Source of the DNA: Verrucomicrobiota bacterium
GTDB taxonomy: Bacteria; Verrucomicrobiota; Verrucomicrobiia; Limisphaerales; CAIQOK01
Assembly (NCBI GenBank): GCA_046346715.1
Contig: JAXMHO010000001.1
Span: forward strand, 187,051-251,050
Direction of reading: 5' to 3'
Length of the DNA: 64,000 nucleotides
This document shows, one piece after another, positions 13,788 to 64,000 of this stretch. A model generated the notes under the pieces. That model made no database searches, was not told the origin of the DNA, and was given only the letters and a program-made list of their open reading frames with translations. Each line of letters begins with the position of its first letter. Within the stretch, counting starts at the first letter, position 1. Position numbers and translations under genes: made by a program.

Positions 13788-13882
13788 CGGACCGTGGTGG
13801 CGGGTTGGTGGGGAGTGCGTGGCTGTCTTTTAATTTCTGCCGGGGTCTTAAAGAAGGTTGATTCAGGGCAATCCCGTTCTTA

Positions 13883-23519: not shown

Positions 23520-23526
23520 GGCCGGC

Positions 23527-24432: not shown

Positions 24433-24439
24433 GGGTGAA

Positions 24440-35713: not shown

Positions 35714-38700
35714 TCAGGGCACGATCACCGCGCGATAGAAGCGCTGCTCCGACGCGGAGCTGTTCGCGTCGTTGAACTGGAAGACGCCGTCAACGCCAGC
35801 CGTGTTCGTGGATATGGACTTCCATCCCGCCGAGGTGGCGATATTCGTCGAAGACTGGATGATGTAGCTCAGGTTCGGCTGGCCGGTGAGCGTGAGCTGG
35901 AACTCGTTGTTCGCCTTCTGCAACACGCCGGTCAGGCGCGCCGGAATGACCGGCAGCACGGTGACCGTGGCGCTGGCGGCGTTGTTGAGGAAGTTCAGGT
36001 CCGTTTCAGCGGCCGCGCCAATCGCGCTGTTCAACGCCGGTCCGGCGACATTCAGCGTGGTGAGCAGATCCATCTGCGCGCCTTCACCGACGTTCAAGGT
36101 GCCGACGTTGAAGGTCACCGTGGTCGGCGACGCCGTGAAGCCGCCCTTTGAAACCGTGACCGTGTCGAGCGTGGCGCCCGCCGGCAACGTGTCGGTGACA
36201 ATGACGCCCGTCGCCACATTCGGACCCTGGTTGGTGACGAAGATGGAGTAGGTCGAGTTGTGTCCCACGTAGATCATCGCCGGATTCGCCGAGGCGGAAA
36301 CCGCCAGGTCAACCGTCGGATTAACCGGAGTCACCACCGTCAGATTCAAGGTCCAGCCGCGGCTGATGATGCCGCCGTCGCCGGTGACATCGTCCACCAC
36401 ATACAACGACCAGTCGCCGTTTGGCGTGCCGCCATTGAACTGGGCAAACGACGCCGTGAACTGGCCCGCGGGGGCCGGTGACGGGAACGCGCGGCTCGCC
36501 GGGAAGGATGCCGGCTTGTAGTCGCCTGCCGCTGTTGCTGTCGTGTCGGACAATGTGCCAGCTGCGGCGTCGTAGAAGGAAACGGTCAGATTGCTGACGG
36601 AGTTACCTCCTCCCGCTCCTGCCATGACGACCGACTTGGCGCCCGTCGGGCTGACGAGCAGCACGCCGATGTCTTTCGGGAACGCATGGGTGATTCCATT
36701 CAGCGTGACCGAGACCTTGCTGACATATCCGGACAATCCCGAGACGGTGATGGCGGACGGATACGGCGCGGCGCTGCCGTGGTCGGGAATGATGATGGCG
36801 TTCGTGTTGGCGAACGAATTGGTCTGCGGCAGCGTGAAGTTGAAAGTCACCGAGCCAAGATTGTTCGCGCCATCCTGCAGGGACAGCGTCGCGACGATCA
36901 CGCCGCCCACCGGATTGCCCGCCGTGAAGGTGAAGTTGCGGGAGACCGCCGCACCGTTGTGAACCAGCGCACCATAGTTGACCGCGCCGCTCGAAGCGGT
37001 GACCCCGCCGGTGTTGGCGAGCGTGGCCACCAGGCTAGTGGTGTCGATTTCGCCGGTGTTGGCGAGGCCTAGCGCCACCGTGACGGTTTCACCCGCCGAG
37101 ACCGTGCCGTCGGCCGGGAGCTGGGATTCAGAAACCAAGGCAGCATTGACGGTGACGATGGCGGCCTTGGGCAGCCGCGCTGTGATGGTGGCCGAGCTGG
37201 AATTGTTGTTGGTGTTGGAATCAGACGACGTCGTTGAGGCGGTCGCCGTGTTCACAATCGTGCCGGTCGTCGTGGGATGCGTGGTGATGGTGATGGCGGA
37301 GCCCGCACCGGAGTTCAGCGTGCCGAGGTTGACCGTCAGCGTGCCGCTGGCGAATGTGCCGGCGCTGGACGAGACATAGGCCAAACCGGCCGGGAGGACA
37401 TCGGTCACGACGGCATTCAAGGCCTTGCCGGGACCGTTGTTCACAACGGAGAGGGTGTAAACAAAGTTGCTGCCCGTGACCACCGTGTCCGCCGACGCGC
37501 TCTTCACGATGGAAAGATCCGCCACCGGCAGATTGGCCGTCGTCGAAAGCGTCACGCTGTTGTTGTTCGGAACGAGATCGTTCTGGCTCGCCGAGACGCT
37601 GGCCGTGGTCGTGAGAACGCCCGAGGTGTTCGGTGAAACCACGATGGTCACGGTTGCGCTCGCACCCACGTTGAGGCTGCCGAGGTTGGCATAGACCGTT
37701 CCCGCGTTGGTGTTGTAGCTGCCCTGGGAAACCGTGGTAGAAAGGTAGCGGACATTCGCCGGAAGCACGTTCGTGAAGGCGATGTTGCTCGCCGCGTTGG
37801 TGCCATTGTTCGTCACGGTGAAGGTGTAGGTGAGATTATCACCCGCCAGCACCGGGTCCGGAGAATCCACGCCCGAAATGGAGAGGTCGGCCGTTTGATT
37901 CACCGGCGTCAGAGTGGTAATGGCCAGGCTCCAGCCGTTGCTGATGACGCCGGAGTCGCCGGCGGATTCATCCACGACGTACAAGGACCAGACGCCGTTG
38001 GGATTGGAATTGTTGAAGACCGACAGGGCGGCCGGATACGGACCCGCGGGTGCCGGACTGTTGAAGACCGGCGTCGGGGCATAGGACACGGGCGCCCAGG
38101 TGCCGGTGCTCAAAGAACCGCTGTCAGGCAGCGGGGAAGCCGCCGCGTCATCAAAGGTGAAGGTCGCCCCGGTGACCGGCGAGCCAAACTGCCCGGCATG
38201 CGCCATCAGCACGCTCTTGGCGCCGGTGGGCGACACCAGCAGGACGCTGACGTCGTTGGGGTAACCGTGGTGGAAGTTGGTCAGCGTGGCGGTAACTTTG
38301 CCGACCAGGCCCGTGACACCCGAGACCGTGATGGTGGACGGATAAGGCGAGGCGCTGCCCACATCCGGAATGGTGATCTTGTTGGTGTTCGCGAAGCTCG
38401 TCGCCTTCGGCAGCTTGAAGGTGAAGCTGACCGTGTTCGAGACATCCCCGCTCAACTGCATCGTCGCCACCACGCTGCCGCCGTTCGTGCCGCTGGCGGT
38501 GAAGCTGTAAAGCTGCGAACCGGGCAGGCCGCCAGGTGAAAGCACGCCATAGACGAGCGTGCTCGTAGTGGGAGAAGTCACGCCGCCGCCAGAAAGCAGC
38601 TTGGCCATGACATTGGTCGTCGCGACGTTGCCGAGGTTGGCCAGCCGGAACTGCACGCTGACGGTCTCGCCGGATTCAATCGAGCCGTTCGCCGGCGCGA

Positions 38701-42610: not shown

Positions 42611-42670
42611 ACCTGACCTGACGTTCTCCTAAGAACGTCAGGCGCTGCCTTCCCGGGCGTGATTGCCGGG

Positions 42671-45600
42671 CTAGGGTCCGTGCAGGCGGAAGTATTTGCT
42701 GCCGGAGCCGACGCTGATGGTGATGACGTATTGTCCGTTGCTCACCACGGCAGTCGGGCTGGTGACGGTCGTCCACACCGGCGAAATGAGGTTGGTCGCG
42801 CTTTCCAGCACATAGCCGGCGGTGTTGGTCGGCCAGCTGATCACAAGGTTGGAGCCGGACTTGAAGACGCCCAGGTCGAGCGAATCCACCACGGTCTTCA
42901 CAATCGCCGAGTTGTTGGCCTTGGCCGGATCAACCACCTGCGACGCCGCCACCGCAATGTTGGTGATGGTGCCACCGGTGGTGGTCTTGACCACGATGCT
43001 CGCCACGGCCTGGCCGCCCACGGCGAGGGTGCCGAGGTTGGTGAAGGTCACCGTGCTGCCGGAGCGGGTGTAGCCGCCCGGGAAAGCGGAGACGAAGATG
43101 ACGGACGGCGAAAGGATGTTTGTGATCGCCACGCCGGACGCCGCCGCCGGACCGGCGTTGGTGACGAGCAGCGAATACGTCACGTTGTTCCCGCCCCACA
43201 GCGGATTCGGCGTGCCCACCACGGTCAGCACGAGATCGGCCTTGGTGGTGTCCACCGTCGTGATGACTGACGCGGTGTTGTTGACCGTGTTGGCGTCGGC
43301 TTCATTTGCCGCCACCGTGCAGGTGTTGGTGATGCTGCCCACCGCCGTCGGATTCACGACCAAGGTCAGCGACGCGCCGGTGTTAATAGCGAGCGTGCCC
43401 GGGCTCCAGGTCACGACGCCGGAAACGACGGACACCGAGCCCAGCGACGGATTGGAGGAGACGTAATTGACGTTGACCGGCAGGGTGTCGGTCAAAGTGA
43501 CGCCGGTGGCCGTGGACGGACCGTAGTTGGTCACCGTCAAGGTGTAGGTGAGATTGTTGCTCACGATCACCGAGCTTGCGCCCGAAGCCGTGGCCAGCAG
43601 ATCAACCGTCGAGCCCACCAAATTCACCGTGGTCAGATTCAACGACCAGCCGTTCGAGATCATGCCCGAGTTCAGCGCGGTGTCATCCAGGACATACAGC
43701 GACCAGGTGCCGTTCGGGTTGCTGCCGTTCAAGGTGGACAGGTTCGTGTTGTAAGGCGCCGCCGGAGCCGGAGCCGGGAAGATGGTCACGGGGAAGAACG
43801 TGGTCGGCTTGTTGGTGCCGGTGGTGATCTGCGAATTCAACGGCAGATAAGCGGCCGCGGCATCGTCGAATGTCAGCGTCGCGCCGTTGATGGCATTGAA
43901 GCCGCCGGCGTTCGCCATGAGCAGGGTCTTCTGGCCCGTCGGCGACACCAGCAAGGCGTCGATGTCCGCTCCGGAAGTGTGCGTCAGCTTGTTCAACGTG
44001 ACCGTGGCCTTCGTCAAGGAACCGCCCACGCCGCTGACGTTGATGGTCGAGGGATACGGCGAAGCCGCGCCCTGCAACGGGATGCTGATGGCGCCGGCGT
44101 TGGTGAACGAACCCGCGCTGTTGCCGAGGATGAAGGTGAACGTCGCCGAGCCCGCGCTGGCCGTGCCGTTGGTCAGGAGGAACGTCGCCACCACCGCCTG
44201 GCCGTTGCTGCCGCTGGCGATGAAGCTGTATTGCCGCGAGGCCGACGCACCGCCGACGGCGAGCGTGCCGTAATTCTGGGTGCCGCTCGGCGAAGTCACG
44301 CCGTTGGTCGCCAGCAAAGTGGCCTTCAGGTTGGAAGTGTTGGTGCCGCCGCCGTTGCGCAGCGCGAAGAGCAGCGAGACACTTTCACCCGGATCGATGA
44401 CGCCGTTCACCGGTCCGCTCTCGGTCAGCAGCGCCACGCCCGCCGGCACAATCAAGCTGCCGCTGTTGTCGCGGATGGTGAGGACGGCCGCGCTCGGGGC
44501 GACCAGAACACCGTTGGTGCCGATCGGATTGGACAACTGGAGCAGCACGGTCTTGTCCGGCTGCACTGTCGTGCTGTCCGTCACCGGCACGGAGAAGCTC
44601 AGGTTGGTCTGGCCGTTCGTGAAAACCAGGGTGCCGCTCACGGCCGTGTAATCGATGCCATTGGTGCCGGAGCCGTCCAGCGTCGCGTAGTTCACCGAGA
44701 CGGTGCTGTTGGTGTAGCCGGTGCGGAACACGTTGATGTTGGCGGTCACCGCGTTCTTGAACACCGTGTAGCTCGGGCTGGAGAAGCTCAGGCCGGCATT
44801 GATGTCAACAATCGTCACCGTGGCGGTGCTCGGGGAAATCAACTGGCCGGCGCCCGTCGGACCGGACAGCGACACCGTAAAGTTCAGGTCGCCTTGCACC
44901 AGGGCGTTGTTGATGATCGGGACGATGATGTAGTTGGTCACCGCGCCGTTGGTGAAGCTCAACGTGCCGCTGACCGGCGTGTAATCCGTGCCGGCGACCG
45001 CCGTGCCGTCCGCCGAGGCGTAGTTCACCGCCAGAGGTTCGGCGCTGGGATTCGAGCAGAACACCGTCAGGATGGCATTGGTGCCGCTCTTGGTGACGGT
45101 GAAGGTCGGACTGGTGAAGCCCAGACCCGCCTCGGCATCCAGCACGATCACGCTGGCGCTGCTCGGGAAGGTCAACTGACCGCCGCCGGTGGGGTTGGAA
45201 AGATTGACGCCAAACGTCAGGTTGCTGGTGGCGTGGAGATCATGCAGCACCGGGATGTTGATCGACTTGTTGGTCTCGCCGACGTTGAAGGTCAGGACGC
45301 CCGAAGTGGACTGGTAGTTGGTGCCGGCGATGGCGGAGCCGTTCGTGGTCGCATAGCTCACCTGCATCGTGCCGCTGGCGTTGTTCAAACGTTGCACATT
45401 CAGGATGACGGAGCCGGCGGTTTCGCTGACCACGTAAGCCGCGCTGGCAAACGCAAAGCCGGCATCATTGTCCACAATGGTCACCGGGCGGCTCGGGCTG
45501 CCCTGGAGGGTGGCGCCACCGGTCGGGTTGGAGAGCGTCAGTGTCAATCCCACGCTGCCCTGCACCAAGGTGTTCTCAAGCAGCGGCAGATTGAAAGTTT

Positions 45601-48600
45601 TGACCATTTCACCGCTGCCGAAGGTCAGCACACCCGAAACTGCGGTGTAGTTCACCCCGGCGGCCGCCGTGCCGGCGGTCGTGCTGTAGGATACAGAGAT
45701 CGTGCCGGACGAGCCGTTGGTGCGCAGCACGGTGATGACTGCGTTGCTGCTGGCTTCACCGAAGATGTAGTTGGTCGCGGCGAACAAAAGCTCACCGGGA
45801 GCCTGCACAGTGTCGATGATGGTAAGCGTGGCTTCAGCCGGCGGCAGGAGCAGCAGGTTTGCGCCATTGCTGGAGACGTCGGTAAGATTGGTCAGAATCA
45901 TCGTGACCGTGCGGTTGCCGCGCGGCAGACCATTGTTGACGACCGGAATCGCGACGTTCTTGGAAATGTCGCCCGGATTGAACACCACCACGTTGCTCAC
46001 GGACTGATAATCCGTGCCCACCACCGCCGAACCGTTGGTTGTGGTCATGAGGATGATGCTGGCCGCGCCGTTGGTGCCGCCTTGGCGGACGACATTGACG
46101 ATTCCCACGCCGCCGGGTGCGTTTTTGGCAACCGAGTAGGTGCTGGAACTCAGGCTGATTCCTGAATCATCGTTGAGAATGCTCACCACGGCGGAAGGCT
46201 GGTTGCCGAGTTGTGCGGGCGAGGTCGGATTTGACAACGCTACATCGAAGGTCAGCGTCGGCGTCACCGTTGCATCGTCATAGATAGGAATGACCACATC
46301 CCGCGAAACTTCGCCGGGCGGGAAGGAAATGTTGGTGACGATGCCTTCGTAGTTGATGGCCTCCAGCGCCGTGACATCACTGGAACTGAGCTGGATGGAA
46401 ACATCGCCCGAGCCGTCGAAGTTCGGGCCGCTGGTGCCGCCGGCGCGGCGGACCGTGACGACGACATTGGAGCTGATTTCGTGGGTCTGATAAGCGGCCG
46501 CGCTGAATTCAAACGAGCCGGAACCCGCGAGCGAACCGCCGTAGATGCGGACCAGATGCGGATGAGACTGGCTGTCGTAGGTCGTGAACGTGCCGCCGAG
46601 AACAATGTTGCCGTCGGGCTGAATCAACACCGCAGCCACGGACGCATTGGCACCGGTGCCGAAATTGATCGTCGGATCCACCGAGCCGTCCGGATTGAGC
46701 CGAGTGATGCGGTTGCGGGTGACATCATTGCAGCGGGTGAAATCGCCCACCACCACGATCCGGCCGTCCACCTGGACCGCCATTGCATTCACATTGGCGT
46801 CAGCGCCCACTCCCGGATTGAAGCTGGTGTCCACGCTGCCGTTGCTGTTCAGGCGGGCGAGGTGGTTCAGCGCAAAGCCATCCACATCCGTAAACAGGCC
46901 GCCAATCAAAATCTGACCATCGGGCTGAACCGTGATGGCGCGCACGGAATCATTGGCACCGCTGCCCGGCTGGAACGACGTATCCACCGAGCCATTCGGA
47001 TTCAGACGAGCCACGTGATTCAAAGGAGCACCGTTGAAGGTGGTGAAGTCGCCGCCGACCAGGATCTTGCCATCCGGCTGAACGGCGAGCGCGTAGATGG
47101 TTCCGTTGGCGCCGGTGCCGGGATTGAAATCATTGTCCACTGCACCGCCGTCCATCAACTGGGCCACGGAGTTGCGGGAAACGCCGTTGAACAAAGTGAA
47201 CGCGCCGCCGACCACAATCCGCCGTTGGCCGGTGACAAAGGTTTCACCGAGGGCATAGATGGGGTTGTTCGCGCCGGAGCCGGGATTGAAGGAACTATCC
47301 AGCGAGCCATCCAGATTCAACCGGGCAATCCGGCGGAGGATGGTGCTGTTGACGTTGGTGAAAAAGCCGCCGATCAAAATCCGGGAGTCGGTCTGGGCCA
47401 GCACCGAACGCACGGTGGCATTGGCTCCCCACGTGGTCAGATAAGTGGAGAAGTGCGTGTCCAACGTGCCGTCTGGCTTCAACCGGGCGATCCGCTGACG
47501 CGGAACTCCGTTGGCCGTGGTGAAATCACCGCCCACCAACAAACTGCCATCAGCCTGCAGGTCGAGGGCAAAGACGGAATCATTGAACCCTGCCAGACTG
47601 CTGTAGGTCGTGTCGGGTTTGCCGGCCGGCTGGTTGAAGGACTCGTCATCGGTGATGTTCAACAAGGCCTGAATCGGAGAACCCTGCGCGCCGCCGGGAA
47701 CAAATCCGCTAAGTTGCAAGGTCAGGAACCGGGTTGGATCCGACGTGCCATTGTTGATGATCGGCACGTGAATCAGCTTGCTGACTTCGCCGGGGCCGAA
47801 GAACAAGGTTCCGCTGGTGTCACCGTAGTCCGTGCCGGCGAAGGCCGTGCCAGGAATGGTCGCATAATTCACAGCGATCGATTCCGCCGAACCGCCGGTG
47901 CGAACCACCGGGATGATGGCGTCGCTGCCATTTTCATTCACCGTGTAAACGGGCGCGCTGAATTGAACGGTGCCGACGGCATCCATGTTCGAGATGACCA
48001 AGGTTGCGCTGGTGAACAGCCCGTTTAGAACCAGACTGTTGTTCGTTCCATTCACTTTGCCGTTGGTCAGGTTGATGTCGACCGTGAGGTCAGGCGTTAC
48101 CAGGCCATCCGGGAAAATGGGAATCGAGACGGTCTTGGCGCTGACATCGCCATTAGCCCAGGTGAGGACCGTGCTGGACGAAATGAAGTTCACACCATCC
48201 GACGCCGAACCCGCAGTCACCTGAACCGTCACGCTTTCCACGTTCAAGCTGCCACCCAGACGGTTCACCGTGATGACCGCCGGACTTTGCGTTTCACGAA
48301 TGCCGTAGATATCCGAACTCAAGCTGAGATGTCCGGAGGAGAAATCGTCATCCACGATCAGCAACTGGGCATTCGTGTTACCCAGGCTCGCGCCGCCGCT
48401 AGGCGTGAACAGGTTCAATCCCACGGTGCGATCCTGCTGGGCGATAAAGTTGTTGAGCAATGCGACCGAAAACGTTTGATTCGTCTGGCCGGACCCAAAA
48501 GTCAGCGTGCCGCTCTTGGCCGTGAAGTCCACGCCCGGAATGGCCGTGCCGTTCGTGGTGGTGGAGTATTTCACCGTCACCGTGCCAGCACTGCCCGTGG

Positions 48601-51600
48601 CGCGGTTGACGCTGATGATCGCGTTGCCGGCATTTTCATTGGTGACATAAACCGACGAGCGGAAGCTGAGGATGCCGGCCGAATTGTTGTTGTGAACAAT
48701 GCGCAGAGGTGCCGAGCTGCGTCCCAAGGAGACCCCCAGCGGAATGTTGAGTCCGCCCAGCAGGAAGGTTTCCGTGCCAATCGGCTGGGTCAGCTTCAGA
48801 TCAATCTCCGTGTCCGCGTTGTTGTTGCTGATGATGTTGATGTAAACCGGGCTGGCGAGGTAAACATGCGCTCCGTCAACGGCGGTCTCGTCGTTGTTGG
48901 GGCCGGTCAAGCCGTCGCTCATCATCCAAGTTCTCGACCAGGAGGAACGCCACAGCGGGGTGGCGGGGTTGAAGGTATAATCCACACCATACGCGGCGGA
49001 ACCAGGTCCCGGCGGACGGGGAATGGCCTCCAACTGCGCGCTGACCTGACCCAACGTGCCGTTGGCGCGGGTCAGCTGCACAAAGTATGTCGGCGAGGAA
49101 GAGTCCGCCGTGTAGCTGGGCTCGAGGCTGATCGTGCCGGAACCCGGAGTGGCGCCACCAATGATGCGCGCCACGTTGCTGCGCTGCCGGATGTCTTCCC
49201 GGCTGAAACCGCCGCCCACCTGCTGGAATTTACCGCCGATGATGATGTTGCCGTCGGGCTGGACATCGATGCCGTACACCGGGTTCGGCGCATTGACGTT
49301 GGAGTCGTGGTAAGGATTCACCAAGCCGGCAAACTGGTTGTAGGCCGTGTCCATGAAGGTTGTGTCCACCGCGCCGGCCGTGGTCAACCGCGCGAAGCTG
49401 ATGCGCCGGCTGCGGTTGATGCTGTTGAACACGCCGCCCACCAACACCGCGCCGTCCGACTGGAGTTTCAGGCTGTAAACAATGTCATCCGCGCCAACGC
49501 CGACATCAAAGGTCGAGTCCCATGAACCGTCGTTGTTCAACCGGGCAATTCCTTTGCCGCCGAGGTTGTTGAAAGCGTTGAAGGCGCCGCCGATCAGAAT
49601 CTGGCCGTCGTTCTGGATGGCCAAGGCGTAGATGGCGTCATCGGCGCCAAAGCCGGTGCCAATAAACGTTGAATCCAAGGTGCCGTCCGCATTCAAGCGG
49701 GCGATGCGGCTGCAGTCAACGCCATCCACCGTGGTGAAATCACCGGCGATGACAATTTTGCCATCGGACTGAACCGCCACGGAATAGATTGTGCCGTTGG
49801 GGCCGGTGCCGGGATCAAACGAGGAATCCAAAGTGCCGTCGGGATTCAGCCGGGCGATGCCATTGCGGCCCACCAGATCATAGGTGGTGAACATGCCGGC
49901 GATGACAATCTGGCCATCGGGTTGAACTGCGGCAGCATATACCGGGAGGTCCGCGCCGAAGCCGGGATCGAAGGAATTATCCAGCGCACCCGAAGTCGTC
50001 AGCCGGGCGATGCCGGAGCGGAAGGTGCCGTTGTAGGAACTGAACCCGCCAACGAGAACGGCCCGCTCGGAACTGTCCAGCACCACCGAGTTGATGAAGC
50101 CATCCGCACCGGAACCAGGATTGAAGCTGGTGTCCAGCATGCCGCCTTTGCGGACGCGGGCGACGCGGTTCCGGGGCGTGGTGTTGTAGGCGGTGAAGTC
50201 ACCGGCGATGATCGTTGACGAGTCGGATTGCACCGCGACGGAATACACCGTGCCATTGGCACCGGGATGCAGGTTGGCGGGCGGAGTTGTGGTCGGATAA
50301 TTGTCGGGATTGTAACTGCGGTCCACGGCACCGGCCGCCTGCTCGGCAGTGGCCCATTCGCCGTTGGCGTCCGGACTGGCGGCGATAGAGGCATCAAAAA
50401 CAATTGTCAAAACACAGCTGTCCACATTGCCGATGACGCCGTTTTGCGGCGCGTTGCCGGAGCTGCGGTCGAATTGGATGAAGATGTCCTCGTTGAACTC
50501 CACGAGGTCATCGTTGTGAATCGGAATGTCGATGAACTTGATCGCATCATCATTGGCGCCCCAGGTCAGCGTACCGCTGGCGGGGACGTTCGTGAAGTCC
50601 ACGTTGGCTGAGTATTTGGTGGCATTGTCGGGCGTGGCGTAGTCCGAACCCGGCTGCACAGGAAACGTGTTGTTGCGGCCGTATCCGTTGTTGCCCGTGG
50701 TGTCGATGATGTAGTGCACTGATGAACCGGAGGAGAAATTGGTGCCGGAGCGGACGACGCCAACGCGGGCCAGCGTGGTGCCTTCGTTGCAACGCAAAGT
50801 TGCGCGTTCAAAGTTGAAAATGGAATTGGTCGAGGGGAACAGGCCCGTTGCGCCCGGCACTGAACCGGTGTTCAAGAAGGTGACCGTGGCCGTCCCGTTC
50901 AACGCGTCTATCTGCGGCAGGCCCGGAGTCTGACCTTCGGCCGCGTCCAAGGTCGCGTTGGTGAGAGTGACAATGAGGTAACCGTTCACACCCGCAAAGT
51001 TCGGCACCGAAGCCGGCACATAAATGTCGGCGCTCATCTGCCAGTCATTGAAAATGACCGAGCCTTGGGCGAATGCCGGCGGCACGGTGGAGGTCGCCAG
51101 AAAATTGGTGCCACTGGTGGTGGAGCAGAAGGTCACCGTGGCCGGGGGCGGCGGAGTGGCGACACCATAAACCGGCGGCCAGTTCTCGGGAATGTCACAG
51201 AAAGGGGCATTGCTGAAGACAACACCCGTCACCCGAGAGGAGAAGATGCCGTTGCTGTAGGTGGTGATGGAACCCGGCAGATCAATGGTGCTGCTGAAAA
51301 CACCGTTGTTGAAGTTTTGATAGACCACCCGCACCACCATGTTGCTGATCATGGTGTTGTTGGTGTCGATGGTGCCGAAGTAGTTCGTGTAAAAAATGTT
51401 CGTGTAGAGGCTGCTGGTAATGGAGTAGTCCACCTTGACCTTACCGGAGTATCCGCGGTAACGAGTCACCGTGGCGCGGGCCGGCAGACCGAAGGTGGTG
51501 ACGCTGGCGGTGCCAAAACTTTCGTTTTGGCTGTAGCGATAGGCGGTGGATGTCAGTTGAAACTGCCCAGGCCAGTTCGCCCCGACCGCGTTCCAGTTCA

Positions 51601-52102
51601 AGATGTAATCACCTTCGTCCGCAAAGAACAAACCCGAGCCGAAGCCATTGACCGAAATGTAGTAGGTCGTTCCCTGTACCGCCGTGAACGTCATTTTGCT
51701 CGTCAGACTCGGGCCGCTGTCGTCGTCGGCGGCGACCTGGGTCAGGCTGGACACACTGCTGCCGGTGTAAGCCGCCAGCACCGTGTCGAACACGCTATTA
51801 AGGGTGTCAAAGGTGACGTTGCCATTGAGCGGGGCGGTCCAGCTGTACCAGACGGAGGATCCCAGCGGGATGGTGCCGGTCGGGGTGGCAACCACGGTCG
51901 GTTCTCCCAGTTCCAAGGTGGCATTAGTGTTGGAACCAGTCACCTGACCGAGCAGGCCGGTCACGGGAATGGCGTCGAGGAAATTGTCATTGGCGGGCTG
52001 GGCCAGCACGGTGGCCGCCCCCAAGATAACGCCGGCCCAGGCCGCGAGCTGAAAGGCTTTCAACCACGCCGGCACGGTGAATAATTGTCGCACTGTTCGC
52101 AT
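42671..52102 (-). CDS. about 3143-aa secreted giant protein: PPC-like domain, two 8-repeat delta-60 propeller blocks, about 10 Calx-beta domains, CARDB-like + P domain, DUF11 repeats, FYR C-terminal domain
   Basis: The track start at 52129 is TTG. ATG 52102 gives MRTVRQLF...GAATVLAQ/P. Delta-60 repeats (DGxLDxSFNPGxGAN...QPDGKILVGGxFT) span aa ~603-992 (49154-50323) and aa ~1505-1865 (46535-47617). Calx-beta signature GTDYxxxSGTLxFxxGE. Ends ...KYFRLHGP. Confidence 0.85.
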   Translation of the reverse strand: MRTVRQLFTVPAWLKAFQLAAWAGVILGAATVLAQPANDNFLDAIPVTGLLGQVTGSNTNATLELGEPTVVATPTGTIPLGSSVWYSWTAPLNGNVTFDTLNSVFDTVLAAYTGSSVSSLTQVAADDDSGPSLTSKMTFTAVQGTTYYISVNGFGSGLFFADEGDYILNWNAVGANWPGQFQLTSTAYRYSQNESFGTASVTTFGLPARATVTRYRGYSGKVKVDYSITSSLYTNIFYTNYFGTIDTNNTMISNMVVRVVYQNFNNGVFSSTIDLPGSITTYSNGIFSSRVTGVVFSNAPFCDIPENWPPVYGVATPPPPATVTFCSTTSGTNFLATSTVPPAFAQGSVIFNDWQMSADIYVPASVPNFAGVNGYLIVTLTNATLDAAEGQTPGLPQIDALNGTATVTFLNTGSVPGATGLFPSTNSIFNFERATLRCNEGTTLARVGVVRSGTNFSSGSSVHYIIDTTGNNGYGRNNTFPVQPGSDYATPDNATKYSANVDFTNVPASGTLTWGANDDAIKFIDIPIHNDDLVEFNEDIFIQFDRSSGNAPQNGVIGNVDSCVLTIVFDASIAASPDANGEWATAEQAAGAVDRSYNPDNYPTTTPPANLHPGANGTVYSVAVQSDSSTIIAGDFTAYNTTPRNRVARVRKGGMLDTSFNPGSGADGFINSVVLDSSERAVLVGGFSSYNGTFRSGIARLTTSGALDNSFDPGFGADLPVYAAAVQPDGQIVIAGMFTTYDLVGRNGIARLNPDGTLDSSFDPGTGPNGTIYSVAVQSDGKIVIAGDFTTVDGVDCSRIARLNADGTLDSTFIGTGFGADDAIYALAIQNDGQILIGGAFNAFNNLGGKGIARLNNDGSWDSTFDVGVGADDIVYSLKLQSDGAVLVGGVFNSINRSRRISFARLTTAGAVDTTFMDTAYNQFAGLVNPYHDSNVNAPNPVYGIDVQPDGNIIIGGKFQQVGGGFSREDIRQRSNVARIIGGATPGSGTISLEPSYTADSSSPTYFVQLTRANGTLGQVSAQLEAIPRPPGPGSAAYGVDYTFNPATPLWRSSWSRTWMMSDGLTGPNNDETAVDGAHVYLASPVYINIISNNNADTEIDLKLTQPIGTETFLLGGLNIPLGVSLGRSSAPLRIVHNNNSAGILSFRSSVYVTNENAGNAIISVNRATGSAGTVTVKYSTTTNGTAIPGVDFTAKSGTLTFGSGQTNQTFSVALLNNFIAQQDRTVGLNLFTPSGGASLGNTNAQLLIVDDDFSSGHLSLSSDIYGIRETQSPAVITVNRLGGSLNVESVTVQVTAGSASDGVNFISSSTVLTWANGDVSAKTVSIPIFPDGLVTPDLTVDINLTNGKVNGTNNSLVLNGLFTSATLVISNMDAVGTVQFSAPVYTVNENGSDAIIPVVRTGGSAESIAVNYATIPGTAFAGTDYGDTSGTLFFGPGEVSKLIHVPIINNGTSDPTRFLTLQLSGFVPGGAQGSPIQALLNITDDESFNQPAGKPDTTYSSLAGFNDSVFALDLQADGSLLVGGDFTTANGVPRQRIARLKPDGTLDTHFSTYLTTWGANATVRSVLAQTDSRILIGGFFTNVNSTILRRIARLNLDGSLDSSFNPGSGANNPIYALGETFVTGQRRIVVGGAFTLFNGVSRNSVAQLMDGGAVDNDFNPGTGANGTIYALAVQPDGKILVGGDFTTFNGAPLNHVARLNPNGSVDTSFQPGSGANDSVRAITVQPDGQILIGGLFTDVDGFALNHLARLNSNGSVDTSFNPGVGADANVNAMAVQVDGRIVVVGDFTRCNDVTRNRITRLNPDGSVDPTINFGTGANASVAAVLIQPDGNIVLGGTFTTYDSQSHPHLVRIYGGSLAGSGSFEFSAAAYQTHEISSNVVVTVRRAGGTSGPNFDGSGDVSIQLSSSDVTALEAINYEGIVTNISFPPGEVSRDVVIPIYDDATVTPTLTFDVALSNPTSPAQLGNQPSAVVSILNDDSGISLSSSTYSVAKNAPGGVGIVNVVRQGGTNGAASIILMTTTNGSAVVGTDYQSVSNVVVFNPGDISKNVAIPVVNNGLPRGNRTVTMILTNLTDVSSNGANLLLLPPAEATLTIIDTVQAPGELLFAATNYIFGEASSNAVITVLRTNGSSGTISVSYSTTAGTAAAGVNYTAVSGVLTFGSGEMVKTFNLPLLENTLVQGSVGLTLTLSNPTGGATLQGSPSRPVTIVDNDAGFAFASAAYVVSETAGSVILNVQRLNNASGTMQVSYATTNGSAIAGTNYQSTSGVLTFNVGETNKSINIPVLHDLHATSNLTFGVNLSNPTGGGQLTFPSSASVIVLDAEAGLGFTSPTFTVTKSGTNAILTVFCSNPSAEPLAVNYASADGTAVAGTDYTPVSGTLSFTNGAVTNYIIVPIINNALVQGDLNFTVSLSGPTGAGQLISPSTATVTIVDINAGLSFSSPSYTVFKNAVTANINVFRTGYTNSTVSVNYATLDGSGTNGIDYTAVSGTLVFTNGQTNLSFSVPVTDSTTVQPDKTVLLQLSNPIGTNGVLVAPSAAVLTIRDNSGSLIVPAGVALLTESGPVNGVIDPGESVSLLFALRNGGGTNTSNLKATLLATNGVTSPSGTQNYGTLAVGGASASRQYSFIASGSNGQAVVATFLLTNGTASAGSATFTFILGNSAGSFTNAGAISIPLQGAASPYPSTINVSGVGGSLTKATVTLNKLTHTSGADIDALLVSPTGQKTLLMANAGGFNAINGATLTFDDAAAAYLPLNSQITTGTNKPTTFFPVTIFPAPAPAAPYNTNLSTLNGSNPNGTWSLYVLDDTALNSGMISNGWSLNLTTVNLVGSTVDLLATASGASSVIVSNNLTYTLTVTNYGPSTATGVTLTDTLPVNVNYVSSNPSLGSVSVVSGVVTWSPGTLAINTGASLTLVVNPTAVGSITNTCTVAANEADANTVNNTASVITTVDTTKADLVLTVVGTPNPLWGGNNVTYSLLVTNAGPAAASGVAITNILSPSVIFVSAFPGGYTRSGSTVTFTNLGTLAVGGQAVASIVVKTTTGGTITNIAVAASQVVDPAKANNSAIVKTVVDSLDLGVFKSGSNLVISWPTNTAGYVLESATNLISPVWTTVTSPTAVVSNGQYVITISVGSGSKYFRLHGP

Positions 52103-52202
52103 AATGACTTTACAAAATTGGATCTGCAATTCGGACCAAACTCTCTCCCTTCATCCAGGGAGCCAGCAACCCGTCGTCAGCCACGTGAACTCTCGGCCAC
52201 CC

Positions 52203-56366: not shown

Positions 56367-56370
56367 GGCG

Positions 56371-58764
56371 TCAGGGATTGATGGTCAACTCGAAGGGCAC
56401 GTCCACCGAGCGCGAGGCTGAGTCCGTGACCCGGATGGTGAAATCATAGGTAGCCGCCGCGCCAGTCACCACACCGACACCCGTTGAGAGATTGATGCTG
56501 CTGGAGTTGGTTGAGGCGACAAAGTTCAAACCGCCCGGCAAACCGCCCGAGCCCGGAGCCAGCGACCAAGTGTAAGGCGCCTGTCCGCCGCTGGCGGTAA
56601 GCGTGTTGAGATAGCTCGCACCGCGGGTTCCCGCCGGCAGTTGAGCGATGCCGCTGACGACCGTTGCGGCCGGCTGCGTCGAGACTTGGATGAAAATCTG
56701 GTTGAGGAAGTTGCCAAGGCTGGTGCGGTTTGGAAACACGACCGGGGTGTTGGTCGTGCCGTCGAACGACGCCCAGAGCAGGCTCTTGACCGCCGACGAT
56801 TCATCGGAAATGAAGAACAGCGACGAGTTAAACAGGTTGAAGTCGGCAATGTTCCAGTAGGAATCGCCAATCTTGTTGAACGAGAAAGTGGTCGGGCCAA
56901 CCAAGGTTCCCGGTCCAGACACCACGCCGTTGCTGATCGCCTGGTTGAAGCCAAGGTTGCGGAGGACGGTGCCGTTGAAATTGTTCGCGCCGCCCTGGTC
57001 CTGCACGCTGAACAGGAAGTCCGGGCGATTGACCACGCGCTCGATCAACTGTGGACGCAGCGTGTTGTTGGTCAGCTCGTAAAGCGTGTAGCGATTGGTC
57101 GCCGGCTCCCAGAAGGTGCCGATGAGCGAGTCAAAATCACGCCGCTTGAACTGGATGCGTTCCACGCCCTGGCGCAGGCCGATGGTGTTTTCCGGGCAGG
57201 TGATGGGCAGATACACCAGCCAGTTGTTCGTGAAATAGGTGATGGTGCTGACCGTGTAGGTCTGATTGCTGCCCGTGCTGTTGGTCAGCGTGGTGGAGGC
57301 AATCAGGTTGGTGGTCGCAACCACGTTCGTGTAAAGGCTCTGGATGATTTTAATGCCGCAGTTGTTCGTTGGCAGGATGAAGAAGCTGCCGGAAATGTTC
57401 TTGGAAAGGAGCAGTCCGGAGGTATTTGTTTTCAAGGACGGCGGAGTTCCCGCTACGGCAAAAGGGGCGCCGCCGGGCGAAACAATCTGCGTGCGATAAA
57501 CGCTGTGCTTGGCGTAGGTGTTGAAGTTGGTGACGACGTTCAGGAAATTGTGCTTGAAGTACTGGATGACCGTCGGCTCGACATTGGTGGTGATCACCAC
57601 CTGCACCGTGCCAGCCGGAGCAAACGGCGCGGGCACAATGTTGAAGACAAAATTAGTGGAGAAGGCCAGCTTGAACCAGTTGGTGGTGTCCTCCACCAGC
57701 AATCCCGGGAAGAGCGCCTGCAAGGCGGCTGCGCTGTTCGTCGGCGCCACCGAGGCGAGCAGGCCCAAATCAAAGGAATTGGTCAACAGCACCGGGGTGT
57801 TGTTGGTGACGAATTGAACCGTGCCCGTGCCGGAGGCTTCCGTGTTGTAATTGTCCTTGCGGAGCAGGTAACGCAATCCGGCCATGTCGTCACGGGTGAG
57901 GTAGGTGTAAAACCCGCCGATCTTCAAACCGACGCCGCCAGGGTTGATGCCCTGGGCGCCGCCAATAAAGGTGATGCCTTGATGAGAACCCGGATCAGCC
58001 GCCACAGAAGTGTAGACCTCCGCAGTGGGATCAACCGGATAGGCGATGGCTTCAGCGATCGGAGTACCGGTGCAGTATTCCACAATTCCATAGGTGTAAA
58101 GAACGCCGTTGATGTAGCTGGAATACGGGGTCTGACTCAGAGGCGTTTGGATGAGAACATCGTAGTTTCGCTTCACCACATGATACAAACCGGCCAAAGG
58201 ACAGGGAGTGCCCATTGTCCGCGCATGAAGCGTCCAAACAAAGCGCTCCGGCTGGCTCAAACCCAACTGCTCCACCAAGAGGTGCAGGGTCATTGATTTG
58301 ACGTCCGTCAGAAACAAATCCTGCGCCTCGAAATTAAGCTGCTGCGACTTGAGCGGAAACTCGGAGAGATCTTCGCTGTAGGCTGAAACGTTGGTCAGGC
58401 TGTTGATGACCCCGCAGGCCTGATCCACCGCCGCGACACCGTTTGAACCAAAGTATTCCCAGAACGGGGCGTCGCAGGAGTAATACATCACAGGGGTGTT
58501 GCGGCGAAATTCCTCCCCGAGGTTGTGCGGTCCGCCCAAATCTCCCAAGGCGACGTTGTCGCCGTAGGTGATGGATCCAATGTAGGTGCCGGCCAGATAG
58601 CCAAGCGCCGGAACCTGATAGGCTTCAAACGGCCCGACAAACGCAAATCCGTGCGACGATTGAATGCCGCCGAGCAGGAGGGCCAACGCCGCCATCTTCT
58701 TGAAAAAGCGCATAAAAAAACTGTTCATGACGCGGTCGCCTGAGTTCATCATTTCTCGTTTCAT
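56371..58764 (-). CDS. 797-aa secreted protein of unknown family with a C-terminal Ig-like (He_PIG-type) domain
   Basis: Signal MRFFKKMAALALLLGGIQSSHG (the start is ambiguous between 58764 and 58713). The C-terminus reads ...GASYLNTLTASGGQAPYTWSLAPGSGGLPGGLNF... Confidence 0.75.
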   Translation of the reverse strand: MKREMMNSGDRVMNSFFMRFFKKMAALALLLGGIQSSHGFAFVGPFEAYQVPALGYLAGTYIGSITYGDNVALGDLGGPHNLGEEFRRNTPVMYYSCDAPFWEYFGSNGVAAVDQACGVINSLTNVSAYSEDLSEFPLKSQQLNFEAQDLFLTDVKSMTLHLLVEQLGLSQPERFVWTLHARTMGTPCPLAGLYHVVKRNYDVLIQTPLSQTPYSSYINGVLYTYGIVEYCTGTPIAEAIAYPVDPTAEVYTSVAADPGSHQGITFIGGAQGINPGGVGLKIGGFYTYLTRDDMAGLRYLLRKDNYNTEASGTGTVQFVTNNTPVLLTNSFDLGLLASVAPTNSAAALQALFPGLLVEDTTNWFKLAFSTNFVFNIVPAPFAPAGTVQVVITTNVEPTVIQYFKHNFLNVVTNFNTYAKHSVYRTQIVSPGGAPFAVAGTPPSLKTNTSGLLLSKNISGSFFILPTNNCGIKIIQSLYTNVVATTNLIASTTLTNSTGSNQTYTVSTITYFTNNWLVYLPITCPENTIGLRQGVERIQFKRRDFDSLIGTFWEPATNRYTLYELTNNTLRPQLIERVVNRPDFLFSVQDQGGANNFNGTVLRNLGFNQAISNGVVSGPGTLVGPTTFSFNKIGDSYWNIADFNLFNSSLFFISDESSAVKSLLWASFDGTTNTPVVFPNRTSLGNFLNQIFIQVSTQPAATVVSGIAQLPAGTRGASYLNTLTASGGQAPYTWSLAPGSGGLPGGLNFVASTNSSSINLSTGVGVVTGAAATYDFTIRVTDSASRSVDVPFELTINP

Positions 58765-58770
58765 GGTTGC

Positions 58771-61185: not shown

Positions 61186-61253
61186 AACAGGTTCAGATTA
61201 TTTTGGATCGCCAGACACTATCCACGATTTTTCCAACGACGCAAACCGGCGTC

Positions 61254-64000
61254 TTACTGGGCGCCGGCCGGTGACGCAAAGCCTGTCTGCGTGAACGGCA
61301 GGTCCTCATCCAAATGCACACGGTTGCCGGCCGGATCAAGAATCGTCGGCGTGACAAAGATGAGCAGGTTCTGCTTGCTCGTCTTGTTCTGCTCGCTGCG
61401 GAACAAACGTCCCACAAACGGCAGATCACCCAGCACGGGCAGCTGGTCTTTGACGCGGGTGACGTTGTCCGAAATCAAACCGCCGAGGACCACCGTCTGG
61501 CCATCCCAGACAATGCAGCTGGTGGTGATGGAGCGGACACGGAAGCGCGGCAACGGCAACTGCGCCGTGAGCGGCAGTCCCGTTCCCTGCTGGGCCTGAA
61601 TCACGAACTGACCCGGATCATCGTAGCCGAGGAATTCCACCAGGCTCGGAATCAGGGTCATCTGGATCGTGTAGCCATCCGCGGAAACATACGGAATCAC
61701 GTCGATGGTCGGTCCCAGCGGAATCGGCGTCGCCGTAGGCGTGATCGCCTGCTGCGACTGCTGCAACACCGTATTACCACCCGTGGCGGCTGCTGTGCCA
61801 CCGCCATTGCCGCCGCCTTGGTTCACACCGCTGTCGGTGACGATGTAGCGCAAATCTACCGCCTGGAACTGCGTTTGACGGCCGCTCAACGTGGTCACGT
61901 TCCCGTCCGTCAGTTCATCCACGCCATCACGCTGCTGCAAGGCACGCAGCACCATCTTGAATTGAGGATCGGTGAGGATGCCGGTAAGCGAACCCACGGC
62001 CGGAGCGTTCACCGTGTTGCGTAGACCCGAGGTCAGAAGTCCGTCGGAATTTGCCGGCGTGGTGGCCGTGCCGAACAAGGTGCTCCCAGGGAAGGTTCCC
62101 TCCGGATTCACCGACGACGGCGCACCGTTCAGGCTGGGCTGGGTGCCGCCGGAACCGACCGCTTGTCCACCAACACGGAAATTGCCGAGATACCAGTCAA
62201 AGCCCAGCGCCTTGGTGTCGTTCTGGGTGACTTCGACAAACTTGACGCGGATGTTCACCTGGGGCGGAGCAACGTTGAGGGTCTGAATCGCCTGCTCGAT
62301 GATGTCCAAGTCTTCAGACGTCGCCCGGACCCACAAGGAGCCTTCGCGGTCGTTGAAGAACACGCTCTTCGGCGGATCGAGATTCACGCCTTCCGCACGG
62401 AAGAAATTGATGACCTGAGCCTGAACCAGAGACATGTTCTGGATGGAGGTCACGGCCGTGATGCCGTTGCCGCTACCGTTGGCACCGGCCTGACCGCCTT
62501 GACCAGCCTGGCCGCCGCGGTTGCCGCCGCCGCCTTGACCGCCACGGTTGCCACCACCGCTGCCGCCACCGGCAACGGTCACCTTGGGCAAGATGCTGCC
62601 ACCACCGCTGCCGCTTTGCCCGCCACCACCGCCGCCGCCGCTACGACCGCCGCCACCACCACCACCGCGGCCACCACCACCGCCACCGCCGCCACTACCG
62701 CCGGTGGTCTCAGAGAAATCAAAGCCTTCAACCGCTTCCAAGCCTTGCTGGAAGGTGTTCGGATCCACCTTGAAACGGCGGCTGATCAAAGGCGCGGCCT
62801 CGTTGCCCTTTAAGGAGAACTCAATCGTGTAATCCTTGATCGTATATTTGATGGGATGATCCGCCACCGTCACAATCGCATCCAAGGCGTCCGCCAAACG
62901 GATGTCGGAGAGGCCGGGGTTGATGCGGATATGAACGTCGTTGTTCAAATCGAGCTGTTCCGCCTGGGGAGCCGGAGCCGCAATGGGGAGGCCGGTCGCC
63001 GGATCGGTCAACGGCTGAACCGGGGCCGGAGCCCGGAAGCCGTCGCCGCCACCGCCGAATTGACCGCCAAGGCCATTGCCGACCACTGGAGTGGTCGCCA
63101 CGGTCTGTGCCGCCGAGGGTGAGGAATTAATCAGAAAATTGATGCCACGGTTGTTGGGATCGCGTTTCTTCGTGAGCTGGCTCAGCGTGCGCACGACTTC
63201 GGACAGCGGCACGGCCTCCTGGAATTCAAAATTGTCGAGGCGGATTGAATCCAGCTTGCTCATGATGATCTGCCGCTCGCGACTGGTGTTGATTATGTTG
63301 GTCTTCGCATAAGGATTCGGAACCGGAAGACTTTCGCGCTTGGTGGAATCGCGCCAGGAGTCCTGCACCTTTACGATCTTGGTCTGATTGTCGAGATTGC
63401 GTCCCGCAGTCGAACGCTTGTAGCGGGCGTTTTGAACCAGGCCCGAGTAGTAAACAATGGTCTCATTGCCCGGATCGAGCTTCATCGCCTGCCGGAGCTT
63501 GGCGTCGGCTTCATCAAATTTGTCGTTCTGCAAAAGCACGCGAGCGTCCTGAACCAGGATCGCGGCTTCTTCGCGCTGCTTCTGAATGGTCGGGAGCTGA
63601 TCGAGCACATCCTGATTCGGAGTGAACTTTTTCTGTTCGGCAAGCAGGGCGTTGTTCTTGGCCTGAAACTCCCGGGCCGCGTTGTCATGGCTGTTCACGC
63701 GCAGCACGTCCTCGATGTGTGTCTTGGCTTCGCGGAAATCACCGCGTTTTTGTGCATCCTTGGCGAGATCCATGCGGGCGGCGGTGAGTCCCGCCACGGT
63801 CTGCTTTCGCTCGGCGTCAACCCCGGGGCCGATTCCCACGATAAGCGCCCAGGCCTCATCGTAGTCCTTAGCGGCCGCCGGCAGATCACGCCGCTCTTCA
63901 GCAACCCGGGCATCCATCAGCTTCTGGCGGAGGGTGATGCGGTCGGCTTGACGGCGCAGGGCTTCCTTCACAGCCATGTCCGTATCCGTCTGGGCGGAGG
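61254..64000 (-). CDS. secretin (GspD/PilQ superfamily) with a helical TPR-like N-terminus; 5' end beyond the window
   Basis: Secretin domain: VNIRVKFVEVTQND..., DQLPVLGDLPFVGRLFRSEQ, NLLIFVTPTIL. The frame stays open from the first Met (63977) to position 64000. Confidence 0.85.
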   Translation of the reverse strand, partial: SAQTDTDMAVKEALRRQADRITLRQKLMDARVAEERRDLPAAAKDYDEAWALIVGIGPGVDAERKQTVAGLTAARMDLAKDAQKRGDFREAKTHIEDVLRVNSHDNAAREFQAKNNALLAEQKKFTPNQDVLDQLPTIQKQREEAAILVQDARVLLQNDKFDEADAKLRQAMKLDPGNETIVYYSGLVQNARYKRSTAGRNLDNQTKIVKVQDSWRDSTKRESLPVPNPYAKTNIINTSRERQIIMSKLDSIRLDNFEFQEAVPLSEVVRTLSQLTKKRDPNNRGINFLINSSPSAAQTVATTPVVGNGLGGQFGGGGDGFRAPAPVQPLTDPATGLPIAAPAPQAEQLDLNNDVHIRINPGLSDIRLADALDAIVTVADHPIKYTIKDYTIEFSLKGNEAAPLISRRFKVDPNTFQQGLEAVEGFDFSETTGGSGGGGGGGGRGGGGGGGRSGGGGGGGQSGSGGGSILPKVTVAGGGSGGGNRGGQGGGGNRGGQAGQGGQAGANGSGNGITAVTSIQNMSLVQAQVINFFRAEGVNLDPPKSVFFNDREGSLWVRATSEDLDIIEQAIQTLNVAPPQVNIRVKFVEVTQNDTKALGFDWYLGNFRVGGQAVGSGGTQPSLNGAPSSVNPEGTFPGSTLFGTATTPANSDGLLTSGLRNTVNAPAVGSLTGILTDPQFKMVLRALQQRDGVDELTDGNVTTLSGRQTQFQAVDLRYIVTDSGVNQGGGNGGGTAAATGGNTVLQQSQQAITPTATPIPLGPTIDVIPYVSADGYTIQMTLIPSLVEFLGYDDPGQFVIQAQQGTGLPLTAQLPLPRFRVRSITTSCIVWDGQTVVLGGLISDNVTRVKDQLPVLGDLPFVGRLFRSEQNKTSKQNLLIFVTPTILDPAGNRVHLDEDLPFTQTGFASPAGAQ
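62463..62708 (-). repeat. low-complexity Gly/Arg/Gln/Asn-rich insertion (about 82 aa) inside the secretin periplasmic region
   Basis: TTGGSGGGGGGGGRGGGGGGGRSGGGGGGGQSGSGGGSILPKVTVAGGGSGGGNRGGQGGGGNRGGQAGQGGQAGANGSGNG, encoded by GGY/CGY-rich DNA. Confidence 0.85.

Follow-up and report, generated by a model that had tools for sequence, protein, structure and literature searches.

The minus strand of the 64,000-nucleotide stretch of contig JAXMHO010000001.1 (Verrucomicrobiota) analysed here, referred to as the window, carries a string of genes in which a secretin gene is followed by genes for three large proteins, designated A, B and C, by two giant genes (giants 1 and 2), and by coaE. The linkage of A, B, and C to secretin genes of the type found in the MUL2 locus of Akkermansia is conserved across one order of environmental Verrucomicrobia. 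Judged from sequence, the secretin belongs to the Amuc_1098 family, that of the tetratricopeptide-repeat (TPR) secretin of the type-IV-pilus-like MUL2 locus, and the 5' half of the cluster appears to be a diverged member of the MUL2 or type-IV-pilus-like kind. The region probably represents the 3' two-thirds of a cluster conserved in Verrucomicrobiota of the Limisphaerales/Pedosphaera type, the 5' part of which would start just outside the window. The reading that we favor, to which we assign a probability of roughly 0.5, is that A, B, and C work with a pilus-like machine, that the giants are displayed or secreted through its secretin, and that the system captures polymers or particles.

Conservation was examined in a scan of one genome per species, which yielded 250 loci, the best 80 of which were kept for synteny analysis by tblastn with the window proteins and the upstream proteins of one relative (locus L001). 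Named records among the kept loci are all Verrucomicrobiota (Limisphaerales, Pedosphaera, 'subdivision 3'), barring a few metagenome-assembled genome records labelled as other phyla; the closest relative, L003, has 65% identity, and the window's own species is not among these best 80 of 250. The same-strand gene order is kept across all 80 species-level loci wherever the flank reaches, and the seven-gene core pilM–Amuc_1100–Amuc_1099–secretin–A–B–C lies on one strand in 42 of the 42 loci having full 10-kb flanks. Four further context look-ups, seeded from distant secretins or from a member of the 797-residue (protein B) family, give an identical layout. A sequence-only reading of the window had suggested checking whether homologs of A, B, and C co-occur with secretins, and both the full-flank loci and the look-ups place them side by side. 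The A-B-C block adjoins the pil genes in every locus examined, at 37–65% protein identity, with median gaps of 3 nt from A to B and 12 nt from B to C. Protein B has 36% identity over its full length, as against 35–36% for the Amuc_1100-like and Amuc_1099-like genes, and A and C are comparable in their aligned parts. As a control, ten genes upstream of pilM, taken from four loci, recur in just 0–30 of 58 loci; that these genes vary indicates that the cluster outlasts general synteny.

The window ends inside the secretin, and we infer the genes upstream of it from relatives. In two distant relatives of A (38% and 46% identity), the upstream order is a PilM_2/FtsA protein of ~610 amino acids (aa), an Amuc_1100 protein (PF28028) of ~320 aa, a gene of ~265 aa, and a secretin of ~900–940 aa, followed by a gene of ~800 aa, one of ~790 aa with a He_PIG domain, one of ~1300 aa, and a Calx-beta/DUF5122 giant. 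The three genes preceding the secretin in L003 encode 260, 311, and 636 aa. The PilM-like gene of relatives scores 473–476 bits against Amuc_1101_fam (473 for the 636-aa gene of L003) and passes the TIGR01175 pilM cutoff, and the Amuc_1100-like protein of L003 has no sequence match in the PDB at E ≤ 1. Among the genes called upstream of pilM in relatives (NAGPA, S2/EF-Ts, UvrA, acylphosphatase) there is no Amuc_1102-like gene, no search having been aimed at Amuc_1102. Since PilM-like, Amuc_1100-like, and Amuc_1099-like genes lie upstream in every relative examined, the secretin is the fourth gene and does not head the operon, as had been proposed from the window alone. The locus likewise proves not to be a dedicated secretin locus, NCBIfam matches and synteny placing the secretin in a pilus-like locus of PilM/Amuc_1100/Amuc_1099/Amuc_1098 type. 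One condition that the sequence-only reading had named as speaking against it has two halves, of which the first is found, the secretin lying in an operon of type IV pilus (T4P) type with further parts upstream, and the second, that the large genes are never syntenic with secretins in related genomes, is not.

The assignment of the secretin rests on Pfam and NCBIfam. The secretin domain PF00263 is matched (E 4.4e-26) at aa 679–880 of the 907-aa window open reading frame (ORF), about 61338–61943, and the best family is NF042912 ('Amuc_1098 family type IV pilus outer membrane protein'; 345–363 bits, E ~1e-103 to 1e-108), whereas the rival secretin models GspD (124–150 bits) and PilQ (102 bits) score lower. 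The full secretin is database protein P0121 (934 aa, signal peptide MIKPLTIPLCVSLLLAVATASAQ), which scores 353 bits against NF042912, below the equivalog cutoff of 750, with a match spanning model positions 402–803 only, indicating that the secretin is a homolog rather than an equivalog of Amuc_1098. The 5' end of the gene had been placed beyond the window, and this is borne out: the ORF has no in-frame stop up to the window edge, 914 of the 934 codons lie within the window, and, with only 20 codons missing, the gene is essentially complete. TPR matches in the window secretin are below Pfam thresholds (TPR_16, 25 bits against a cutoff of 32.7; TPR_2, 23 against 27), and TPR Pfam matches are precomputed for many of its close homologs. 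PDB secretin cores of the type II secretion system (T2SS) and of T4P match the window secretin about equally (E 1e-17 to 1e-14).

Two further features of these secretins were observed. A Gly-rich, low-complexity insert of ~95 residues (nearly all Gly/Ser/Arg/Gln) lies between the secretin N-domains at about 62441–62726 and contains GGSGGGGGGGGRGGGGGGGRSGGGG. In one subclade the secretin is encoded by two consecutive ORFs, the first of ~750–767 aa (TPR and N-domains) and the second of ~215–225 aa (secretin core); because the arrangement recurs in independent assemblies, an assembly error is improbable, and a real split or a recoding event is the likelier cause.

Spacing of the ORFs in the window is close, with gaps from the secretin to coaE of 68, 6, 4, 73 (or 100), 60, and 14 nt in order. 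The ORF sizes, the shared minus strand, the gaps, and the downstream coaE had all been read from the letters and are reproduced from the ORF coordinates (Table 1). The Pfam domain matches, together with the many database relatives of A (at least 2239), B (at least 774), and C (at least 4250), indicate that the ORFs are real genes and not chance.

Table 1. Coordinates of the gene string, of C-terminal modules within it, and of split secretin genes in relatives (locus coordinates for the latter).
Feature	Position	Strand	Basis or description
Secretin, putative Amuc_1098-family TPR-secretin (PilQ-like)	61254..64000, runs past window end	minus	Pfam, NCBIfam
Protein A, 804 aa	58771..61185	minus	signal peptide, predicted N-terminal beta-propeller, predicted all-beta C-terminal domain
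Protein B, 797 aa (785 aa from ATG at 58728)	56371..58764	minus	signal peptide, C-terminal He_PIG immunoglobulin (Ig) domain
Protein C, 1387 aa	52203..56366	minus	signal peptide, ~1000-aa N-domain, C-terminal domain homologous to that of A
Giant 1, 3152 aa (TTG start; 3143 aa from ATG at 52102)	42671..52129	minus	Pfam, NCBIfam
Giant 2, 2298 aa	35714..42610	minus	Pfam, NCBIfam (including TIGR03296), HExxH motif
coaE (dephospho-CoA kinase), conserved 3' boundary of string	35115..35699	minus	PF01121, E 8e-52
FYR module, giant 1	42680-42886	minus	FYR hidden Markov model (HMM), E 7.5e-10
FYR module, giant 2	35720-35938	minus	FYR HMM, E 2e-10
Split secretin, L018	5982-8949		
Split secretin, L045	6021-8989		
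Split secretin, L084	4025-6989		
Split secretin, L032	5804-8721		

The gap between the secretin and A (61186–61253) contains no terminator-like site and no significant RNA fold, the terminator scan having covered 44001–64000. A weak sigma-70-like match is present in this gap at 61224–61197, but such matches occur at chance frequency (4 found versus 4.7 expected), and Rfam, tRNA, terminator, and promoter scans returned nothing significant in the region. In the gap between the two giants, a perfect 12-bp hairpin (42616..42643, minus strand) lies directly upstream of the start codon of giant 2. Its fold of -30.5 kcal/mol has z = -2.4 relative to shuffled sequences, no U-tract is visible by eye, and the hairpin may act in processing, stabilisation, or translational control between the giants.

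Proteins A, B, and C had been described as having no nameable family, and for Pfam and NCBIfam this holds apart from the match to He_PIG (E 6e-7) at the C-terminus of B, which is the sole Pfam match among the three. Protein A has no Pfam match and no PDB sequence match at E ≤ 1 in a profile search. Its AlphaFold2 model (mean predicted local distance difference test score, pLDDT, of 79) predicts a beta-propeller at aa ~28–425 (59911–61104) and an all-beta C-terminal domain at aa 481–799 (58789–59745), and Foldseek matches it only to generic propellers (CylK, sialidases, GH145, PL24/25/42). The model of B (pLDDT 66) predicts an N-terminal and central region with long beta-hairpins, and its structural matches in the PDB and BFVD run through the Ig domain only. 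Neither B nor C has a PDB sequence match at E ≤ 1, and C has no Pfam or NCBIfam match. The C family includes a long form of ~1300 aa and a short form of ~1000 aa, and at E ≤ 1e-3 it comprises at least 4250 representative clusters. Profile–profile comparison indicates no remote paralogy among A, B, and C, the sole relation being the C-terminal domain common to A and C. The domain and structure checks that had been suggested for the 804- and 797-aa proteins thus give a propeller and an Ig domain, but the Foldseek matches give no function. A role for A as a PilY1/PilC pilus-tip adhesin was considered and rejected: there is no PF05567 match, the propeller is N-terminal, PilY1 is not among the top 50 Foldseek matches, and no pilin genes are nearby.

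All five large proteins have a basic n-region, a hydrophobic core, and an AxA-like site by hydropathy and visual inspection, with maximum 12-aa Kyte-Doolittle values of 1.8–2.6 versus 1.07 for coaE, in agreement with the classical Sec signal peptides first noticed by eye. The accompanying claim that alternative sorting signals are missing is likewise upheld within Pfam and NCBIfam, the five proteins having no match at E ≤ 0.01 to prepilin N_methyl, RTX, autotransporter, type IX secretion system (T9SS) C-terminal or PEP-CTERM models, and a scan for the class III (prepilin) leader motif finds none anywhere in the window. Taken system by system, as a type I secretion system (T1SS) RTX substrate none of the five has a HemolysinCabind match and all have Sec-type leaders. 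As type V secretion system (T5SS) proteins they have no C-terminal beta-barrel, N-terminal two-partner secretion (TPS) domain, or TpsB-type match in Pfam or NCBIfam, and A is predicted to have a soluble, all-beta domain at its C-terminus. No Por_Secre_tail or type B C-terminal domain is found in the whole proteins as would mark T9SS cargo, and no PEP-CTERM/exosortase-type tail, the five C-termini being non-hydrophobic.

Two C-terminal modules recur among these proteins. The C-terminal domains of A and C (aa 1054–1381 in C, 52224–53207) are homologous over ~325 aa (33% identity, E 2e-30). In other clades this domain of the A and C families is replaced by a module of ~70 aa, here called FYR (...W..LTNFV...RFYRVRVD.P-COOH), which ends short-form members of the C family and resembles the last 70 residues of both giants. 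An HMM built in this analysis from C-terminal tails finds, besides both giants of the window, members of the C family in 50 loci and of the A family in 15, and 81 of 87 matches end within 12 aa of the stop codon. The isolated C-terminal modules have no Pfam or NCBIfam match even at E ≤ 10, T9SS tails included. From its position and distribution, the FYR module is a candidate sorting or anchoring domain. Separately, all five large proteins end in Pro at a non-hydrophobic C-terminus, as do 63–68% of sampled members of the 804- and 797-aa families in their final residue, 55% of representatives of the 1387-aa family, 32% of homologous secretins, and 3 of 24 other window genes; the last two values led us to set terminal Pro aside as a signal and to regard it as at most a weak feature, which may reflect a bias of the lineage at C-termini or belong to the sorting modules.

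The giants differ from A, B, and C in their constancy. Giant 1 contains nine Calx-beta domains (E 5e-157), thirteen DUF5122/delta-60 propeller repeats (E 2e-142), a P-domain, and two DUF11 domains, and a homologous Calx-beta/DUF5122 giant follows C in 38 of 55 loci; in 10 coaE follows the C homolog directly with no giant whatsoever, and 7 are unclear. Giant 2 appears from sequence to contain an M6-like Zn-metalloprotease (HELGH at aa 438–442, 41285–41299), P-domains, and six DUF11 domains, with a C-terminal architecture paralogous to that of giant 1. Pfam matches DUF11 in the gene string with E 3e-120. Although it had been counted as a member of the locus, giant 2 was rejected as a conserved cluster member, because relatives of its N-terminal protease part at ~50% identity occupy other genomic contexts in a metagenome scan. 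In L083 and L085, a homologous M6-like protease domain (E 1e-35 to 1e-44) opens the cluster giant. Across loci the cluster giants are 1928–3199 aa long and vary in presence, number, and domains, with the protease domain fused or separate. The relatives of giant 2 elsewhere, together with the fused protease domain in L083 and L085, make the giants look like a shuffled, variable payload.

In the relatives, the 5' part of the cluster encodes a MUL2-type, type-IV-pilus-like envelope machine consisting of a PilM-like protein of the Amuc_1101 family, an Amuc_1100-like (PilN/O-like) protein, an Amuc_1099-like protein, and the TPR-secretin; this is invariably followed by the lineage-specific, Sec-exported A, B, and C and usually by one or two modular giants, with coaE ending the string. 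In the mechanism that we favor, Sec would carry A, B, and C to the periplasm, and as fixed partners of the machine they would work together with it at the outer membrane or cell surface. The giants would be variable payloads, surface-displayed or secreted, for which the secretin would be the most plausible outer-membrane route, as it is in T2SS and in secretion dependent on type IV pili. The exchangeable C-terminal domains of A, C, and the giants, whether the 325-aa domain or the FYR module, would probably serve a common sorting or anchoring step, and the whole system may capture polymers or particles, in line with glycan acquisition by MUL2 in Akkermansia. We infer secretin-dependent export of the large proteins from the strict linkage, from the lack of any signal for another outer-membrane route, and from the analogy with T2SS cargo and the role of MUL2, and consider functional coupling plausible.

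Several observations weigh against this mechanism. The folds, generic in A and confined to an Ig domain in B, yielded no functional assignment. No pilin, ATPase, or platform gene is found among the window ORFs in T2SSE, T2SSF, and N_methyl searches. A gene for a 5'-3' exonuclease (PF02739/PF01367, ~295 aa), absent from the window's clade, lies between the secretin and the A homolog in 49 of 75 loci and in L018 (8946–9833) overlaps both neighbours by 4 nt; with this gene and coaE inside a tight string, tight spacing alone does not show shared function, and co-linearity in these genomes clearly tolerates functionally unrelated genes. The contexts of giant 2 relatives and the loci having no giant point the same way, as does the finding that, in loci lacking the cluster, the FYR module terminates one unrelated ORF and M6-like proteases of 1030–1217 aa, which makes it a module that exported proteins of this lineage carry generally at their C-termini. 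Finally, according to a figure legend of PMC13174399, Akkermansiaceae MUL2 loci appear without A, B, and C, which would mean that the machine can work without them.

Much of this evidence would also suit a less probable but serious explanation, that the large genes are neighbours only of an ordinary pilM-N-O-Q-type operon, sharing a vertically inherited string with housekeeping genes, and that their products are periplasmic or exported otherwise, for example by a separate Gsp-type T2SS or by a pathway recognising the FYR module. The interposed exonuclease and terminal coaE, the metalloproteases with FYR modules in unrelated contexts, the unlinked homologs of giant 2, and the Akkermansiaceae loci as that legend presents them are all points in its favor. 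So is the promoter-like match between the secretin and A, although such matches occur at chance frequency. What this explanation accommodates poorly is that A, B, and C stand beside the pil genes in every locus examined while the upstream flanks turn over, and that an alternative outer-membrane route is signalled in none of the five proteins.

The sequence-only reading in its strong form, in which all five proteins are cargo of a dedicated secretin exporter and assemble one giant surface fibre or protease complex, we consider unlikely. It gains from the tight spacing, from the C-terminal modules common to A, C, and the giants, and from the adhesin-like and protease-like domains, but giants that vary in presence, number, and domain content do not suit a single fixed complex, the machine to which the secretin belongs is pilus-like and general rather than a dedicated exporter, and A, B, and C are conserved like machine parts. 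An extension of the favored mechanism, which we offer as a speculation of similarly low probability, is that the FYR module and the 325-aa domain form a new class of sorting domain that marks folded Sec-exported proteins for passage or anchoring at a MUL2-type secretin, with A, B, and C as a cargo-handling or surface-adaptor module. If true, this would give Verrucomicrobia an equivalent of the C-terminal-domain system of T9SS, and would explain surface adhesins and proteases of 2–3 thousand aa in these diderms without T1SS, T5SS, or T9SS signals. Very improbable is a recently acquired or hypervariable island comprising the whole 25-kb block between secretin and coaE: giants come and go, and in other lineages the secretin or protein C keeps coaE as its neighbour (in part as given in the PMC13174399 legend), but A, B, and C occupy the site in all relatives and have diverged about as much as the pil genes, which largely refutes it for these three, and the block has a GC content of 0.57–0.65, like the rest of the window, with no mobile-element genes, tRNA, or repeats seen in it; it could still hold for giant 2 alone.

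Comparison with described systems places the locus closest to MUL2. Amuc_1098 of Akkermansia muciniphila, the most abundant outer-membrane protein of that organism, is 907 residues long and combines a TPR region at its N-terminus with a secretin domain at its C-terminus (PMC4960237); the Amuc_1098-1102 genes constitute the MUL2 locus, on which Akkermansia depends to acquire mucin, and for Pedosphaeraceae periplasmic uptake of laminarin is reported (PMC13174399; bioRxiv 10.64898/2025.12.30.696933). The likeness lies in the secretin family (NF042912 best) and its apparent overall architecture (934 aa here versus 907), in the Amuc_1101-like PilM, Amuc_1100-like, and Amuc_1099-like genes upstream in all relatives, and in the neighbouring dephospho-CoA kinase, which, with rho, is listed beside the secretin in Akkermansiaceae MUL2 in the legend to Fig. 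2 of PMC13174399. In contrast, the NCBIfam scores here are all under equivalog cutoffs (353 versus 750, 476 versus 650, and 61 versus 180), and 7–25 kb of extra genes (A, B, C, and giants) lie between secretin and coaE, where the legend reports none for Akkermansiaceae. Taken with that legend, this suggests an old frame of pilM...secretin...coaE with extra genes set into it. No mention of Amuc_1093-1097, the genes downstream of Amuc_1098, was found in the searched literature, nor was any description of the extended cluster (A-B-C and giants) or of the C-terminal module. The earlier statement that no described system has this layout therefore stands for the extension within the searched literature and falls for the 5' half, a diverged MUL2 locus.

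A classical type IVa pilus operon consists of pilMNOPQ (TIGR01175, TIGR02515) with aroK/aroB-type downstream neighbours. The locus resembles it in that the PilM of relatives passes TIGR01175 and in the order of an actin-like ATPase-fold protein, two small bitopic-type proteins, and a secretin. However, the PilM of relatives is ~610 aa, about twice the usual length, no PilP is identified, the secretin has a putative fused TPR (pilotin-like) region and scores 102 bits versus a PilQ cutoff of 284, and the downstream genes encode large exported proteins. The pul T2SS locus of Klebsiella, which carries the cargo gene pulA, is a model for folded periplasmic proteins crossing the outer membrane via a secretin. 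It too has Sec-dependent multi-domain proteins without a linear secretion tail encoded beside a secretin machine, whereas here the GspD model (TIGR02517) gives 124 bits versus a cutoff of 351, and no Gsp partners (GspC/E/F/G-M) are found in the window or in the 10-kb flanks of relatives. T9SS cargo carries the C-terminal domains TIGR04183 or TIGR04131. The FYR module is similar in being ~70–90 aa, at the extreme C-terminus, and common to otherwise unrelated exported proteins, but differs in having no sequence match at E ≤ 10, and no T9SS genes are seen. Omnitrophota, also of the Planctomycetes–Verrucomicrobia–Chlamydiae (PVC) group, have T2SS-like loci (gspD/E/F, rcpC) upstream of giant genes (bioRxiv 10.1101/2023.11.21.568195), and thus likewise a secretin locus directly upstream of very large adhesion-type genes. 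Their giants exceed 30,000 aa and have many transmembrane segments and SecA-like domains, whereas those here are of 2–3 thousand aa, have a single Sec leader, and follow a pilM-type locus and three fixed mid-size genes.

Elsewhere in the window, a complete MmeI-family type IIL restriction-modification enzyme is encoded at 10553–13435 (minus strand) with all five MmeI Pfam domains (E up to 6e-91), within a stretch of low GC content (10001–14000; 0.54–0.56 versus ~0.62 elsewhere) that is probably a horizontally acquired island. A 197-aa ORF with a signal peptide and a Big_9/cadherin-like domain (9482–10075) ends just before this gene and may be a truncated adhesin. A P-type ATPase is present as two overlapping ORFs at 20368–22387 (minus strand; E1-E2_ATPase at 21410–22387, HAD hydrolase part at 20368–21621), which could reflect a frameshift, a pseudogene, or a sequencing error. 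Upstream of the P-type ATPase and ABC-transporter genes lies a run of three SPFH/Band-7 genes (374, 301, and 625 aa; 22395–26317, minus strand).

MUL2 and Amuc_1098-1102 have been studied mainly in Akkermansia. Here the same machine occurs in Verrucomicrobia abundant in soil, peat, and freshwater, where it is in strict genetic linkage with three large families that are uncharacterised; their database relatives number from hundreds to thousands, and their main domains lack a model. Adhesin-like giants with Calx-beta domains and beta-propellers are usually linked to it as well. The cluster supplies definite candidates for the proteins that such a pilus-like machine may handle or display, and its seven-gene core is a defined set for genetics and structure prediction. 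If the coupling is true, it would bear on the export of giant surface proteins and on the capture of polysaccharides or particles in PVC bacteria.

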